From UHGV virus genome UHGV-0080837: a stretch of DNA of 29,296 nt. One strand, 5' to 3'. The DNA is from a virus. The notes under the pieces are model-generated. The model worked only from the letters and a program-made list of their open reading frames with translations, made no database searches and had not been told where the DNA came from. The position numbers and the translations under genes were made by a program. Below, in pieces: positions 163-23,674 of the stretch; the first letter of the stretch is position 1; each line of letters opens with the position of its first letter.

Positions 163-1191
163 ATGAGTGAATTAATTATCTCTGGCAGTTCCGGTGGTTT
201 TCTGCGCAACATTGGCAAAGAGTACCAGGAAGCCGCAGAAAACTTTATGCGGTTCATGAATGACCAGGGAGCTTATGCGCCGAATACTCTGCGCGACCTC
301 CGTTTGGTGTTTCATTCCTGGGCGCGCTGGTGTCACGCTCGCCAGCTTGCCTGGTTTCCGATCTCACCAGAAATGGCCCGCGAGTATTTTCTTCAGCTGC
401 ATGATGCCGATCTGGCTTCGACCACCATTGATAAGCACTACGCCATGCTGAACATGCTGCTTTCGCATTGTGGCCTTCCGCCACTTTCGGATGATAAAAG
501 TGTTTCTCTGGCTATGCGGCGCATCCGGCGTGAAGCGGCAACTGAAAAAGGCGAACGAACAGGCCAGGCTATACCGCTGCGGTGGGACGATCTGAAACTG
601 CTCGACGTCCTGTTGTCCAGGTCAGAACGGCTGGTGGACCTGCGCAACCGGGCTTTTCTCTTTGTTGCATACAATACGCTGATGCGTATGTCGGAAATCT
701 CGCGTATTCGTGTAGGAGATCTGGACCAAACAGGTGACACTGTCACGCTACATATTTCACACACGAAGACAATAACGACCGCCGCCGGGCTTGATAAGGT
801 GCTTTCCCGTCGCACTACCGCTGTGCTGAATGACTGGCTGGATGTTTCCGGGCTTCGCGAACATCCTGACGCAGTGCTGTTCCCGCCGATACACCGTAGC
901 AATAAGGCCAGGATCACGATAACGCCCCTTACTGCACCTGCAATGGAGAAAATATTCAGCGACGCCTGGGTGTTGCTGAATAAAAGAGATGCTACGCCAA
1001 ACAAAGGAAGATACCGGACGTGGACCGGGCATAGTGCACGCGTCGGGGCCGCTATTGATATGGCTGAAAAGCAGGTGTCTATGGTGGAGATCATGCAGGA
1101 AGGAACCTGGAAGAAACCGGAAACACTTATGCGGTATCTTCGCCGTGGCGGCGTGTCTGTGGGGGCTAATAGCCGCCTGATGGATTCGTAA
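163..1191 (+). CDS. cre: Cre-family tyrosine site-specific recombinase (diverged homolog of phage P1 Cre)
   Basis: 342-aa ORF alignable by eye to P1 Cre along its length: VSLAMRRIR, AFLFVAYNTL.R..EI.RIRV.D, TKT, GHSARVGAA.DMA, and a C-terminal MRYLRRG segment holding the candidate catalytic Tyr. ATG at 163, TAA at 1189-1191. Confidence 0.88.
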   Translation: MSELIISGSSGGFLRNIGKEYQEAAENFMRFMNDQGAYAPNTLRDLRLVFHSWARWCHARQLAWFPISPEMAREYFLQLHDADLASTTIDKHYAMLNMLLSHCGLPPLSDDKSVSLAMRRIRREAATEKGERTGQAIPLRWDDLKLLDVLLSRSERLVDLRNRAFLFVAYNTLMRMSEISRIRVGDLDQTGDTVTLHISHTKTITTAAGLDKVLSRRTTAVLNDWLDVSGLREHPDAVLFPPIHRSNKARITITPLTAPAMEKIFSDAWVLLNKRDATPNKGRYRTWTGHSARVGAAIDMAEKQVSMVEIMQEGTWKKPETLMRYLRRGGVSVGANSRLMDS

Positions 1192-1264: not shown

Positions 1265-1609
1265 TTGCAGAGTCAAATCACGGAATCAAGACGCTTCAAG
1301 GTGGATGGTTACACCGTAACCTTCGCCGCTGGTGTTAAGAACAGTCATGCTGTCGTTGTGTTCGGCATCATGACCGGGCTTGAGGCCGTCCCTGTGTTTA
1401 CCCTCGAAAAAAACTGGCGAAATCTGGAGGAAGCAGAAAGCTACGTCCGGAAAGTAACCATCATTGCCGCCGAAAAACTCCTGGCCCACTATCAGGAAAA
1501 TTATCGCACTATGGTCGAGAAGATTAATCTCGCTTTCACTCGCCCCACTACCGGCTTTATTGCACCGGATACTAATGCCGGTCGATATCCTGCAAGGGGG
1601 CGTCGGTGA
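1265..1609 (+). CDS. hypothetical protein (cre-adjacent small ORF)
   Basis: 114-aa ORF with TTG start at 1265 preceded by AGGAGG (1253-1258). Its stop overlaps the next start (GTGA at 1606-1609). Confidence 0.5.
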   Translation: MQSQITESRRFKVDGYTVTFAAGVKNSHAVVVFGIMTGLEAVPVFTLEKNWRNLEEAESYVRKVTIIAAEKLLAHYQENYRTMVEKINLAFTRPTTGFIAPDTNAGRYPARGRR

Positions 1610-2082
1610 AAACTTATTACCCATCTCTGAATTGTTACCCGTCTTCCTATCCAGAATTATCCGGGAAGCTGTTAGCTCTATTAGCTAAAGCACCTACGGA
1701 ATGGTTTAAGCCAGTCGTTATCAATCCACACTTCCTGGATTACGGATCTGTTCGCACTCGTAACGAACTCAAAAACCTACTGGCGCATGGATTCATTCGA
1801 CACCGTGCCGGGAAAGGCTATCAGTTAGCGATTGCACCAGAAGAGGCCGTGCGGCTATTCGCATATCGTGACAGCCAGACAAAAGCTCGGGTAATAGCTC
1901 AAATACTTCATAACGGCAGCACCTATGCCCGCCAGTTTGGCGGCGACACGTCGCAGTTCTTGCGGGCGGTGCGATCGCTGGAGGAGCAAGGAGTTATTGA
2001 AAGTTCCTGTCTTCCTGTTCCTACCGTTCCACATATCAAACGTCGGGTTTACACCTTCACGCAGAGAGCTAAAAAACAATGA
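1606..2082 (+). CDS. hypothetical protein
   Basis: 158-aa ORF, GTG start overlapping the upstream stop; its own stop overlaps the dut ATG (ATGA at 2079-2082). No family recognised. Confidence 0.5.
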   Translation: MKTYYPSLNCYPSSYPELSGKLLALLAKAPTEWFKPVVINPHFLDYGSVRTRNELKNLLAHGFIRHRAGKGYQLAIAPEEAVRLFAYRDSQTKARVIAQILHNGSTYARQFGGDTSQFLRAVRSLEEQGVIESSCLPVPTVPHIKRRVYTFTQRAKKQ

Positions 2083-2573
2083 TTTACGTAAAAGTGAAAC
2101 GCCTACATCCGGCAGCAAAACTTCCAGCTTATGCCACCTCCGGATCGGCGGCGATGGATTTTGAGGCTGTTGAAATAAAACCATGCGTCGATAGCAATGG
2201 TGCAATTTCCTCAAGCTGGTGGGTGTATACCGGACTGGCTATGGAGATCCCGCCCGGCTGGTGTCTGAAACTCTATCCGCGATCAGGATTGGGCTGCAAA
2301 AAACATACTCGCCTGGCTAACTGCGTAGGAATTATCGACTCCGATTATCGCGGCGAAATCATGGCAAAACTGATTACTGATCCCGGCGGGGAAGGCGTTT
2401 GTCTCAAGCCTGGAATGGCTGTCATGCAAGGAATTTTTGAGCGTGTTGAACAAGTCTCACTAGTCGAGGTTGAGGAACTCAACGAAACGGAGCGTGGTGC
2501 TGGTGGCTTTGGTAGCACATCGGAAGGCCACTTTGAAATTAAGCGTTCACCGCTTCAGTACGAAAAGTTATAA
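2079..2573 (+). CDS. dut: dUTP diphosphatase (trimeric dUTPase)
   Basis: 164-aa ORF with dUTPase motifs: RSGLG, IIDSDYRGEI, and the C-terminal motif-5-like ERGAGGFGSTS. Confidence 0.85.
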   Translation: MIYVKVKRLHPAAKLPAYATSGSAAMDFEAVEIKPCVDSNGAISSSWWVYTGLAMEIPPGWCLKLYPRSGLGCKKHTRLANCVGIIDSDYRGEIMAKLITDPGGEGVCLKPGMAVMQGIFERVEQVSLVEVEELNETERGAGGFGSTSEGHFEIKRSPLQYEKL

Positions 2574-2587
2574 GCAGAGAAAAGACT

Positions 2588-3265
2588 ATGAATAACAAGG
2601 CAACGAAAGAGCTTTTTAAGCTCCTTCCCAAATACAAAGCTCAAAAAAACGTTAGTGCATCGAAAATCAAAAATGTTGTTATTTTCGGAGTAACTGATAC
2701 CCCACTTTGGGGCAGCATCGAACTCGTTGAACCTAAAGGGGCAACAGTTTGTGTTGACGCAATGTTTTTACAAAAACACCGACCAAAAACTGGCGGGTAT
2801 CTGATCGTTTATGAAAACGGTTATCTGTTCTATGCCCCGGAGAAACCATTTGAGGAACGCTATGGCCTGGTTAACGACGCCTCCAAAAATGGAACCACGG
2901 TCATCATTACGGATGACAACGGCGTGATGATTAATCTTACCGGGAGCGTAACTATTTCTGCTGGTGGCATCACCACCCAGCAAGAAGAAATCGACCTTGA
3001 AGCAGCCGACTTTTCTGACGCGCTGATGTGGCTGAAGGATGGCAAGAAAGTTGCCCGGCGCGGGTGGAACGGCGAAAACCAATTCTGCTGGCTGGTTCCT
3101 GAAGGACAGTACCCGGCACGAATGGAAGCCATTAAGGGATATTTCCCCGGCGATCTCGTTCCGTATGGTGCTTATTTCGCCTTAAAAAATGCACAAGGTG
3201 TAGTTGTTCCGTGGGTGCCTTCTGTAGGCGACTTACTGGCATGTGACTGGTTTGTAGTGGAGTGA
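2588..3265 (+). CDS. two-domain protein: unknown N-terminal domain plus C-terminal DUF2829 (Tad2-like) domain
   Basis: 225-aa ORF. C-terminal ~85 aa (FSDALMWLKDGKKVARRGWNGEN ... WLVPEG ... VVPWVPSVGDLLACDWFVVE) matches the DUF2829 pattern as I recall it; the N-terminal ~140 aa are unassigned. Confidence 0.6.
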   Translation: MNNKATKELFKLLPKYKAQKNVSASKIKNVVIFGVTDTPLWGSIELVEPKGATVCVDAMFLQKHRPKTGGYLIVYENGYLFYAPEKPFEERYGLVNDASKNGTTVIITDDNGVMINLTGSVTISAGGITTQQEEIDLEAADFSDALMWLKDGKKVARRGWNGENQFCWLVPEGQYPARMEAIKGYFPGDLVPYGAYFALKNAQGVVVPWVPSVGDLLACDWFVVE

Positions 3266-3271
3266 TTTAAC

Positions 3272-4039
3272 GTGGAAAATACTAAAGCAATTCAATACCG
3301 CTTGCGTAATGGCCTGCTGGTGGCTGTTAACGCCGACATGTCACTGCCGTTTGACACGATTGAACGTACTATCATGACGTATCTCGGCTTTAATGAAGAG
3401 CTGAATGAAGAGCATGGCGTAGCTATATGGAGTGATGCAGAAAGCGGCGTTCATCGTTACATCACCGCCAGGGGCAAAGACTACTCTCTGGAAGAACTGT
3501 TTACCCTTGCACAGTCTTTCGAATGTGTAGCATTAGACATGTTTAATGATCCTGCTATAGCGCAACGACTTATACGCGAGCTTGGGCTGTCGGTTACACC
3601 AATTATCTTTAAGAATGGCAGCCTGACTGGCACATGGCGCGTAGAACGCATCTCAAACTACCTTCCATATAACCGACAGTTAAATGGAGTAATCTCCGGC
3701 GTTAATCAGCCCGTAGCGTGTGAAAATGTAAACCTGGTTGCCGCTGTTTTGGCAACCGCATGTCGTGTTATCGGTTTGGCTAAACAGGCTTTTATTCATT
3801 TCCCAAATGGTGCAGAAGGTAGCGCAGAGATTATCGCGTGTGATTTCGAATTTACCTGGATGCTACGCGAATATCTGGACCAAACAGTGTTCCGCGCCGA
3901 AGAACTGGATATGTATATCACGTCAACGATTCCTGATGATGTGCGTGCTGAAGCAATCGCTACGGCCAGGGCGAAATGCCGTGCGGCGATTGCAGAACAG
4001 GCCAAAGAAGAAGTTAAGGAAGTGGCAGATGGCGACTAA
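3272..4039 (+). CDS. hypothetical protein
   Basis: 255-aa ORF with GTG start at 3272, acidic C-terminus; same strand and tight spacing with neighbours. Confidence 0.5.
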   Translation: MENTKAIQYRLRNGLLVAVNADMSLPFDTIERTIMTYLGFNEELNEEHGVAIWSDAESGVHRYITARGKDYSLEELFTLAQSFECVALDMFNDPAIAQRLIRELGLSVTPIIFKNGSLTGTWRVERISNYLPYNRQLNGVISGVNQPVACENVNLVAAVLATACRVIGLAKQAFIHFPNGAEGSAEIIACDFEFTWMLREYLDQTVFRAEELDMYITSTIPDDVRAEAIATARAKCRAAIAEQAKEEVKEVADGD

Positions 4040-5123
4040 GAGCAATATTTATAAAGATCCGCGCTGGCTGTCGCTGGTGGAGAAATATAAAGACAATTGG
4101 GTACTGGCAGCAAAAGAATTGTTTGATATTGATTTAAGCCACCAGCAACAACAAATTGTTGAAGCTATACAGCCCAATAATGCAAAAGCTACTGTCACCA
4201 CTCCGTATGGGATCGGACGACCGCAAGTGCTTGCTGTTATTAGTACCCTTTATACGATTATGTATCCTGATTCCCGGACAGTAATTGTTTATCCAAAATC
4301 AAATGTTTGCAAAAGAGGAATTGTTGCATATGTGTGGCAATGTTGGGAGGCATTGCTGAAAAAACAACCTTTTATCATTGAGTATTTTAAGGTCGGTGAT
4401 AGCGGTCTGATGTTCAATGAATTTTGGGGAATGTGCTTTTGTAACTACCGCCTTAACTATGAAGATAGCATTGCAGGTCACTACGCCGACCATCTTTTAT
4501 TCATTATTGTGGATTCCGCACATATCAGCGATCGGGCATACAGCATTGTGTGGGCAAGCATGACTAGTGGTGATTCACGCATATTGCTCACTTCAATTCC
4601 GTCACCAGAGGAAATAGGCTTTTTTTATGATTCACATCATGGACGTGCTTTAGCTGAAGATAATCCGAGTGGTGTATATAAAGCCATTAAGCTGAGTGCG
4701 GAGGATTCACCATTTATTACCCAAGAATATCTTGATCATTTTGCCGAAAGGTATGGCGGGCGAAATAGTGATGACTATCGTCGTATGATTCTTGGTGAGT
4801 TCCCTGGTATTAGGGAGGCTGTTCTTGAATCAGATATGCCGAAGACAATGCGCTTTTCGATGCCTGATGGTAGTGAATGGACAATGCCATTACGAGTGAT
4901 AGCCCGGCATCATGCGCAGCACCACGCCAAAAAACATGGCGTCACGACATTAGAATGGTTGAAATCGCACACTATTCCACTCTTCACTGCAGATCACAAT
5001 GCTATCATTGAGTGGGCAAAAACAATTCCGTGGGAGCATGTCGCTGAATATGCTCACATGCTAAAACCGCCGAAAGACAGGCACGAAATTAGCTGGCTGA
5101 CAGCCGAAAAAATCATTGAATGA
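4029..5123 (+). CDS. hypothetical protein (364 aa from the ATG at 4029)
   Basis: The track ORF 3738..5123 overlaps the previous gene in another frame; the in-frame ATG at 4029 (MATKSNIYKD...) overlaps the upstream stop by 11 nt and is the likely start. Contains a Walker-B-like hydrophobic stretch ending in DS (LLFIIVDSAH), but no P-loop. Confidence 0.5.
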   Translation: MATKSNIYKDPRWLSLVEKYKDNWVLAAKELFDIDLSHQQQQIVEAIQPNNAKATVTTPYGIGRPQVLAVISTLYTIMYPDSRTVIVYPKSNVCKRGIVAYVWQCWEALLKKQPFIIEYFKVGDSGLMFNEFWGMCFCNYRLNYEDSIAGHYADHLLFIIVDSAHISDRAYSIVWASMTSGDSRILLTSIPSPEEIGFFYDSHHGRALAEDNPSGVYKAIKLSAEDSPFITQEYLDHFAERYGGRNSDDYRRMILGEFPGIREAVLESDMPKTMRFSMPDGSEWTMPLRVIARHHAQHHAKKHGVTTLEWLKSHTIPLFTADHNAIIEWAKTIPWEHVAEYAHMLKPPKDRHEISWLTAEKIIE

Positions 5124-22962: not shown

Positions 22963-23301
22963 TCAGGCTGCTTTTTTATTCAGGTTCCGCTGAGAAATAA
23001 ATTTTTCAGCAGTATTGATACGACTTAACTCTTCCTGAACGCGCATATCATTTTCGACTTCCCACAGATCTACTGCGGTCTGAAGATTAATCCAAAAATC
23101 TACAGAAGTATCGAATGCTTTTGCCAGGCGATATGCCATATCCATCGTTAGCTTACGATTATTATTAACAAGAGCACTTACGGTGTTACGATGAACATGA
23201 AGTATTTCTGCTAACTCGTTGATCTTCAGCTCTAACGGCTCCAGGTATTCGTACAGAAGGATATCACCTACGGTCGTCGGTTTTCTGGTTGCCTGTTTCA
23301 T
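22963..23301 (-). CDS. higA: HigA-family antitoxin (XRE-type HTH)
   Basis: 112-aa ORF with the HigA-type HTH pattern (VGDILLYEYLEPLELKINELAEILHVHRNTVSALVNNNRKLTMDMAYRLAKAFDTSVDFWINLQ), immediately downstream of the toxin gene. Confidence 0.75.
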   Translation of the reverse strand: MKQATRKPTTVGDILLYEYLEPLELKINELAEILHVHRNTVSALVNNNRKLTMDMAYRLAKAFDTSVDFWINLQTAVDLWEVENDMRVQEELSRINTAEKFISQRNLNKKAA

Positions 23302-23371
23302 TTTTTGCCCTTACTAGCGTGCGTATTAAGTGGACTCTGGTCAGAACCCGGACCGTAACCGGGAATCTGTT

Positions 23372-23674
23372 TTAGTATTTGTGTGGGTCGAGATACAAGT
23401 CCTCGGCCTTTCCGTTAACCCACTTAAAAATTAACCTATATTGCTTATTCACCCTTACTGATGAATAGCCATTTAGCTTCCCTGACAGTTCCTCATACCG
23501 ATTACCTGGTGGTGATCTTAAATCCTTACAGGTAGTTGCGGCATTGATAATGTCCAACTTCCGTGACAATGTCATATGAATATCAGGAGGTATCTTTCTA
23601 TGTGGTGTTGAAAATTCAAAAAAATCATCAAGCCACGCATCCCTGAAATCCTTTATGTTAATTTTTTTGGTCAT
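23372..23674 (-). CDS. higB: HigB-like toxin (plasmid maintenance system killer protein family)
   Basis: 100-aa ORF with the family pattern DL.SPPGNRYEELSGKLNGYSSVRVNKQYRLIFKWVNG.AEDLYLDPHKY; toxin-first order typical of higBA. Confidence 0.75.
   Translation of the reverse strand: MTKKINIKDFRDAWLDDFFEFSTPHRKIPPDIHMTLSRKLDIINAATTCKDLRSPPGNRYEELSGKLNGYSSVRVNKQYRLIFKWVNGKAEDLYLDPHKY

Follow-up and report, generated by a model that had tools for sequence, protein, structure and literature searches.

The stretch of DNA examined here, UHGV virus genome UHGV-0080837 (29,296 nucleotides, hereafter the window), carries at positions 2588-3265 of the plus strand an open reading frame (ORF) that starts with ATG and encodes 225 amino acids (aa), ending in VGDLLACDWFVVE. 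The exact 225-aa protein is found on 123 public contigs, which is far beyond chance and identifies the ORF as a real gene. Judged by sequence comparison, the window is part of a D6-like, P1-related phage-plasmid, since Escherichia phage D6 matches its first 5.6 kb at 97% identity and the whole window is colinear with ~90-kb non-mobilizable plasmids of E. coli, Shigella and Salmonella (coverage 84-89%, identity 95-97%). The gene product is built from the following segments:

2588-3265, plus strand: the complete OB-linker-Tad2 coding sequence (225 aa plus stop; full-length match to PHROG 872, E=6e-57)
2588-2875, plus strand (aa 1-96): an OB-like beta-barrel domain, related to the decoration protein Dec, in which the near-invariant Cys18-His19 of the family is Ala18-Gln19
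2876-2989, plus strand (aa 97-134): an acidic, beta-rich linker of two allelic types, kept in the OB-deleted form of phage D6
2990-3262, plus strand (aa 135-225): the Tad2/DUF2829 domain, with the Pfam match at aa 141-224 (nucleotides 3008-3259)
3098-3172, plus strand (aa 171-195): an insertion after beta2 of ModTad2-like length and sequence, aligned with a single 1-aa gap

The C-terminal domain can be placed in the Tad2 family with high confidence on the basis of sequence and structure prediction. The Pfam model PF11195 ('Tad2-like', formerly DUF2829) covers aa 141-224 at E=1.9e-22 and scores 80 bits, where its cut-off is 25; the match spans positions 2-73 of the 73 in the profile, and the C-terminal piece alone gave E=2.3e-23. 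The first-pass annotation had assigned the C-terminal ~85 aa, up to the terminal VGDLLACDWFVVE, to DUF2829, and the Pfam match as well as the predicted fold bear this out. In a sequence search of the PDB, ModTad2 (MoTad2) from a Myroides odoratus prophage ranked first (9EIB with His-ADPR, 8V3E apo; E~6e-21, 45-46% identity), followed by HgmTad2/AcrIIA7, SPO1 Tad2 and SptTad2 with E-values of 1e-11 to 3e-9; the identity was 45% to ModTad2, 37% to HgmTad2 and 36% to SPO1 Tad2. The AlphaFold2 (AF2) model of this part of the protein, with a predicted local distance difference test score (pLDDT) of 82-91 (62-71 in the insertion region), displayed the N-terminal helix, the antiparallel sheet and the insertion after beta2 that characterize the Tad2 fold. 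When the model was compared with the PDB using Foldseek, ranks 1-24 were all Tad2 chains, with target-normalised template modelling (TM) scores of 0.61-0.85, and ModTad2 was the best match in structure as well as in sequence. On similarity, the domain was accordingly assigned to a ModTad2-like group (E=6e-21 versus at best <=1e-11 for others, 45% versus 36-37% identity, and an insertion of the ModTad2 type). The two proteins share the GWNG and W-x-P-S-V-x-D motifs and a post-beta2 insertion of equal length, whereas N201, Q203 and G214 near the pocket correspond to T, D and S in ModTad2. Furthermore, ModTad2 is a single domain of ~88 aa and the present protein bears a 134-aa N-terminal extension. 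At 225 aa it thus falls outside the short single-domain format of the characterised Tad2s (about 89-104 aa). One solved AcrIIA7 chain has 158 aa, including a ~45-aa N-terminal extension (four chains in the entry), and N-terminal extensions consequently do occur in crystallised Tad2 proteins.

The core of the ligand pocket is fully retained, as W160, N161, G162, W209, S212 and D215 are identical to the aligned residues of characterised Tad2s. The SPO1 Tad2 contacts W25, N26, W73, S76 and D79 align to W160, N161, W209, S212 and D215, and the HgmTad2 contacts W21, N22, G23, W87, S90 and D93 likewise align to identical residues. SPO1 Tad2 (Gp34.65; 8SME-8SMG) and HgmTad2/AcrIIA7 (8KBI-8KBM) share with the domain studied here the Pfam family, the fold and the core contacts to glyco-cyclic ADP-ribose. 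Conversely, the adenine contact T78 (SPO1) or T92 (Hgm) is Gly in the present protein, and its insertion resembles neither the short SPO1 type nor the long, cGG-binding Hgm type. Among the characterised members, SPO1 Tad2 binds 3'cADPR and others block type IV Thoeris; ModTad2 sequesters His-ADPR, thereby blocking type II Thoeris, with cUMP/cCMP bound in a second pocket; and HgmTad2 binds cGG/cGAMP via its insertion. In both HgmTad2 and MoTad2 it is the post-beta2 insertion that builds this second (cyclic-nucleotide) pocket.

By analogy with these characterised homologs, on which the reasoning about tetramer, ligand and phenotype draws, the gene probably encodes a cytoplasmic counter-defence sponge of the Tad2 type, a tetramer that would shield the phage-plasmid against Thoeris-type immunity and perhaps also against Pycsar/CBASS. 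In this mechanism aa 135-225 would assemble into a homotetramer of two V-shaped dimers, as in the solved Tad2s, in which the GWNG loop (W160, N161) together with the W209-x-P-S212-x-x-D215 segment would line two pockets between non-dimeric protomers. The pockets would sequester ADP-ribose-derived Toll/interleukin-1 receptor (TIR) signals, the most likely ligand being His-ADPR (type II Thoeris) and/or 3'cADPR (type I), while the ModTad2-like insertion may provide a second pocket for cyclic mono- or dinucleotides, i.e. Pycsar or CBASS signals. With the signal removed the effector would be kept off, and the phage-plasmid could replicate in hosts with such systems. The Dec-related OB domain is most simply seen as an accessory module that would not be needed for sponge function; protein binding, targeting and added avidity are candidate roles.

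A number of observations weigh against this assignment. The base and ordered-water contacts differ, as SPO1 T78, T65, D67 and H71 correspond to G214, N201, Q203 and V207, and the Hgm specificity contacts T92, A78 and T82 are likewise unmatched (G214, N201 and V205 are among the residues found here). ModTad2, with only 45% identity, also differs from the present domain at these positions. As the specificity contacts are unlike those of every characterised homolog, the ligand is not readable from the sequence; still, such positions vary among sponges with different ligands, and the mismatch therefore concerns the ligand rather than family membership. In addition, one of five assayed Tad2 homologs failed to block type I Thoeris, which means that family membership does not fix the target, and the published Tad2 pocket analysis was confined to short versions, with long ones excluded. 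With respect to the timing of expression, a consensus scan predicted neither a sigma-70 promoter nor an intrinsic terminator within the dre-to-isaA genes among which this one lies, and none near the Tad2 gene itself. The view of the first-pass annotation that these are early genes in an anti-defence slot thus gains no support from the scan, nor from the neighbours, whose functions are unassigned.

The presence of a Tad2 domain at this locus is not new. Homologs in RefSeq are called 'DUF2829 domain-containing protein', one UniRef homolog bears the name 'Thoeris anti-defense Tad2 family protein', and according to a survey from 2025 Tad2/AcrIIA7 occurs in 93% of the D6-like and 56% of the P1-like phage-plasmids. 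Consequently, the domain was already known here at the level of annotation and, having been counted in surveys of P1/D6 phage-plasmids, adds little by itself; what is new is only the OB fusion partner. Clinical E. coli, Shigella and Salmonella commonly carry D6-like and P1-like elements, and the counter-defence repertoire of these elements therefore bears on how they spread.

The domain had been described in the first-pass annotation as the second of two independent DUF2829 domains in the element, with layered counter-defence as a suggested consequence. However, a Pfam scan of all 100 window ORFs of at least 70 aa returned exactly one Tad2-like protein, and the Tad2 hidden Markov model (HMM), applied unfiltered to every six-frame segment of 30 aa or more with the window edges included, recovered the 2588-3265 ORF only (runner-up 3.7 bits). 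A tblastn search of the window likewise gave no second DUF2829. The claim of two domains thus fails for the window, and layered counter-defence loses its basis in a window holding one. A 191-aa 'hypothetical protein' with a very divergent DUF2829-like C-terminal domain (28.6 bits) is encoded on the related plasmid NZ_CP058787.1 at 78182-78757 (minus strand at 183-758 of the excerpted locus L009); the annotation pipeline PGAP gives it no family name. As the same HMM picks up this gene, the search is sensitive enough for very divergent DUF2829 domains. The gene has no homolog within the window, and its equivalent place would be ~5 kb to the left of the window, on the far side of the c1 and pac genes. 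D6-like elements of this type may therefore, on sequence similarity, carry two DUF2829 genes, with the 191-aa gene as the 'other' one.

Comparison of homologs revealed that the three parts of the protein have different histories. When the window, phage SJ46 and plasmid NZ_CP058787.1 were compared, synonymous divergence (dS) across the three elements was 0.02-0.06 in the Tad2 domain, with almost no amino-acid change, as opposed to 0.5-0.7 in the OB domain, where the ratio of nonsynonymous to synonymous divergence (dN/dS) was 0.4-0.5. Identities computed segment by segment over 26 homologs gave the same mosaic picture. In one homolog (P0003) the OB, linker and Tad2 flanks are 96-100% identical and the insertion 27% identical; in another (P0016) the Tad2 domain is 100% and the OB domain 56% identical; and in a third (P0028) the OB domain is 92% and the linker 53% identical. 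The Salmonella phage SJ46 ortholog gp048, located in an equivalent position, carries an identical Tad2 domain behind different OB and linker alleles (56% and 50% protein identity, the P0016-type allele). In these alignments OB, linker and insertion behave as independently assorting cassettes. The insertions of close homologs are only 20-33% identical despite flanks of 96-100% identity, and they occur as at least three exchangeable allelic types. Thus, while the first-pass annotation had raised different ligand specificities for two domains of one element, it is plausible from the sequences that such differences exist among homologs, via exchangeable second-pocket insertion types, and the swappable insertion offers a natural series for mapping ligand specificity.

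The OB core has furthermore been lost in frame at least three times independently with retention of Tad2 (proteins P0276, P0286 and P0055). The phage D6 ortholog, orf114 (YP_009914791.1; positions 2594-3034 of the excerpted locus L001), lacks aa 21-99, i.e. the OB core, and keeps aa 100-225, with linker and Tad2 domain 100% identical to those of the window; P0286 has a different in-frame deletion of the OB core. P0055 is a natural dUTPase-Tad2 fusion lacking everything up to aa ~126. The D6-type form of 146 aa is present on 527 contigs, compared with 123 for the exact allele of the window, and exceeds every full-length allele read in the cluster sample. The combination of a near-identical Tad2 domain with a variable and repeatedly deleted OB domain indicates that selection holds the Tad2 module, whereas the OB module varies and the element can do without it. 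The circulating forms, whether full-length, OB-deleted or fused to dUTPase, have an identical Tad2 module, which amounts to a natural dissection of the protein.

Even so, the association of OB and Tad2 is real. Roughly a tenth of the top OB-family representatives (~10%) carry Tad2, one protein found on 13 contigs (P0090) has the reverse order Tad2-OB, and on one viral contig the two occur as adjacent separate genes (locus L073, 465-953 and 980-1711). Other small N-terminal domains likewise precede this Tad2 subtype, which also occurs ahead of crAss001_48 domains; Pfam gave nothing significant for the other N-terminal partners searched (P0059, P0065, P0068, P0071).

The N-terminal ~140 aa had been described as matching nothing recognisable and as a novel domain. 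The first statement holds for Pfam and NCBIfam, neither of which gave a match within the first 140 aa. However, aa 1-96 match PHROG 11049/872, and they belong to a large family with a recognisable Dec-related OB fold, so that 'novel' overstates the case. Predicted alone, aa 1-96 form a small beta-barrel with short flanking helices (pLDDT 90; predicted TM score, pTM, 0.81). The full-length model has a pTM of only 0.42 and low confidence at aa 97-135, with the linker at aa ~97-134 at a pLDDT of about 50, and consequently no fixed mutual orientation of the OB and Tad2 domains is indicated. A homolog search with the N-terminal domain alone yielded near-identical fragments only, and a tblastn match of this domain at 16141-16067 on the minus strand (E=0.02) was discarded, as it lies antisense within the Ref nuclease gene and the N-domain HMM did not pick it up.

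A search of 1.84 billion cluster representatives with the OB-domain profile gave 4,979 matches at E<=1e-3 and 2,592 at E<=1e-10, counts that are slightly inflated by summed-score artefacts from giant repeat adhesins. The proteins of 1,500-4,900 aa that top this search are spurious, as each score adds up many partial matches and the proteins do not pass when the HMM is applied per domain. These giant bacterial adhesins (P0128-P0130, P0132, P0134, P0141, P0148 and similar) match only the G-G-Y...D-G-Y half-motif, 10-28 times each, and in the three checked with Pfam (P0130, P0141, P0148) Big_9/cadherin repeats were found. The remaining members are mainly stand-alone proteins of ~85-130 aa with the motifs L-P-x-Y-x-C-H-K-x-V-x-A-x-K-I and G-G-Y-x-V-x-Y-E-D-G-Y-x-S-Y-S-P-x-x-A-F-E-x-G-Y. 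Pfam and NCBIfam contain no model of the family, and the PHROGs that cover it (11049, 9467 and 872) are listed as 'unknown function'. At codons 18-19 (window 2639-2644) the near-invariant Cys-His of the family is Ala-Gln, and a 99%-identical allele has Ala-His; with 123 contigs carrying the Ala-Gln allele, a sequencing error is excluded.

Only one relative of the OB family has been characterised, namely the OB fold in the decoration protein Dec of phage L (6E3C). Against the OB-domain profile, Dec was found in the PDB at E=4.9e-5 and 1.3e-4 in two different alignments; hhalign returned a probability of 95.2% over 87 columns, Foldseek an E-value of 3e-3 (the only non-Tad2 match below 0.01), and Smith-Waterman alignment a z-score of 6.9 against shuffles. 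Sequence and model thus agree on a Dec-like OB fold for aa 1-96, and the relationship is at the level of fold and core motifs. Dec lacks the L-P-x-Y-x-C-H-K and Y-E-D-G-Y-x-S-x-S-P motifs that mark the separate, much larger subfamily to which the present domain belongs. The linker, conversely, does not rise above shuffles when aligned to residues 88-134 of Dec (Smith-Waterman z=1.5, the score being equalled or exceeded in 180 of 2000 shuffles), and a Dec-like trimeric spike in the linker, hinted at by a phmmer alignment, was rejected. The same applies to P0002, a tail-fibre-repeat plus DUF2829 protein considered in connection with the spike, in which the tail-fibre part replaces the N-terminus in what looks like a rearrangement chimera.

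The genomic settings of stand-alone OB genes are heterogeneous. In Ralstonia phage GP4 the homolog gp05 lies between the portal and the major head protein, in SopranoGao and Dolphis the homologs are in blocks of small early/accessory genes, and in a lambdoid phage the homolog is located behind the lysis cassette. When the two largest neighbouring ORFs were tallied at each of 50 IMG/VR loci, eight portals, five terminases and one coat protein were obtained, the other neighbours including helicases, polymerases, methylases, integrases, SSB/ERF and one Acb1. Stand-alone OB genes belong to no consistent module. The existence of a widespread phage OB family outside Pfam and NCBIfam, tied to both Dec and a sponge domain, nevertheless constitutes a lead on function.

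One alternative to an accessory role is that the protein is bifunctional and the OB domain itself an independent inhibitor, acting either as another small-molecule sponge or by binding a defence protein of the host. We consider this unlikely, albeit worth setting out in full. The fusion of OB and Tad2 in both orders (OB-Tad2 in many proteins, Tad2-OB in P0090) and their occurrence as adjacent separate genes in L073 are consistent with it, as are fusions of OB to MazG-like pyrophosphatase and crAss001_48 domains and the mainly stand-alone state of the family, whose median length of 98 aa across 80 viral loci is typical for accessory proteins of phages. The family-wide invariant residues H19, K20, Y71, Y75, D77, Y79, E89 and Y92 suggest a binding site, the high dN/dS and the cassette exchange fit a protein-protein arms race, and Acb1 adjoins one stand-alone OB copy. 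However, a Tad2 gene is found near only one of the 80 stand-alone OB loci, the neighbours are a mixture of portal/terminase and replication genes, the allele of the window lacks the near-invariant Cys-His (A18, Q19), and the commonest form of the gene, that on 527 contigs, has the OB domain deleted. It is similarly doubtful that the OB family at large (~2,600 representatives at E<=1e-10, distantly related to Dec) consists of counter-defence or host-manipulation modules in their own right. If it did, the Tad2 fusions in both orders together with the MazG-like and crAss001_48 fusions would be the first functional handle on the family, and cassette exchange would be diversifying the OB alleles of phage-plasmids in the course of an arms race against a host protein.

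A second alternative concerns the other half of the protein, namely that DUF2829 is not a signal sponge here and has a different function, of which the anti-CRISPR activity formerly reported for AcrIIA7 would be one example. DUF2829 was first tied to Cas9 inhibition in the literature, the specificity residues of the present domain are unlike those of all characterised sponges, and according to the 2025 survey D6-like elements themselves almost never carry defence systems. Conversely, the anti-Cas9 activity of HgmTad2/AcrIIA7 was reported not to be reproducible, all biochemically characterised Tad2 homologs are signal sponges, and the core pocket residues are all kept, which makes a non-sponge function very unlikely.

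In the least probable reading, which is very unlikely, the Dec-like OB domain would attach to the capsid as a decoration protein, with Tad2 displayed on or carried with the particle: aa 1-96 are homologous to the capsid-binding OB fold of phage L Dec, the OB domain has a basic pI of 9.35 and Dec, according to the literature, binds electrostatically, some stand-alone homologs lie in head modules (GP4 gp05; portals near eight of 50 loci) and one homolog is annotated 'capsid decoration protein', but none of five Dec capsid contacts is kept (K30, Y31, Y49, Y71 and E73 align to V31, I32, C55, N77 and Y79; these contacts are specific to one coat protein, and their absence is therefore weak negative evidence), the trimerising spike of Dec is not detectable in the linker (z=1.5), the gene resides in a recombinase-dut operon far from structural genes and, unlike Dec-type genes encoded with structural genes, between dut and isaA (the head genes of a related plasmid being tens of kb from this interval), the cement protein in the cryo-electron microscopy structure of the GP4 head is gp1 with an Ig-like fold rather than gp05, proteomics of P1 virions turned up no decoration protein, a sponge sitting outside the capsid would be unable to act in the cytoplasm, and phage D6, without the OB core, is still a described phage.

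Around the OB-Tad2 gene and elsewhere in the window, the following features are annotated:

163-1191, plus strand: Dre, a Cre-like recombinase (ORF list, annotation of relatives)
1265-1609, plus strand: gene without assigned function (ORF list)
1606-2082, plus strand: gene without assigned function (ORF list)
2079-2573, plus strand: dut, dUTPase (PF00692, PHROG 135; annotated dut in D6 and related plasmids)
3272-4039, plus strand: isaA-like gene (PHROG 2326, E=4e-134; 'similar to P1 isaA' in D6)
4023-5123, plus strand (longest form 3738-5123): 366-aa ORF (PHROG 5902, function unknown)
22963-23674, minus strand: HigB-like toxin / helix-turn-helix antitoxin pair (Pfam HigB-like_toxin, E=4e-35; HigA/RelE-ParE in a related plasmid)

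The location directly after dut and close to the recombinase, as originally noted, is correct, with the dut stop codon 14 nucleotides before the start codon of the OB-Tad2 gene and Dre at 163-1191. From dre to isaA all genes are on the plus strand with spacings from a 4-nucleotide overlap up to 14 nucleotides, except for 73 nucleotides behind dre. This tight packing, in combination with the lack of a predicted internal promoter or terminator, fits but does not prove a single transcription unit. The downstream neighbour isaA is conserved in both D6-like and P1-like (SJ46) elements. In the P1-like SJ46 (L007, 5854-7488) the order is ssb, DUF2829 gene, isaA, and dut is not adjacent. Compared with the D6-like order, this indicates that the DUF2829-isaA pair is a conserved unit that moves as a block.

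The 366-aa ORF beside the isaA-like gene occupies the place of pdcA/doc/phd in phage D6 and plasmid NZ_CP058787.1, and the difference looks like a cassette replacement. The ORF displays weak similarity to a segment of a terminase large subunit. In addition to the genes listed above, the window encodes RdgC, the Ref nuclease, DUF968 and DUF4406 proteins, and a metallophosphoesterase.

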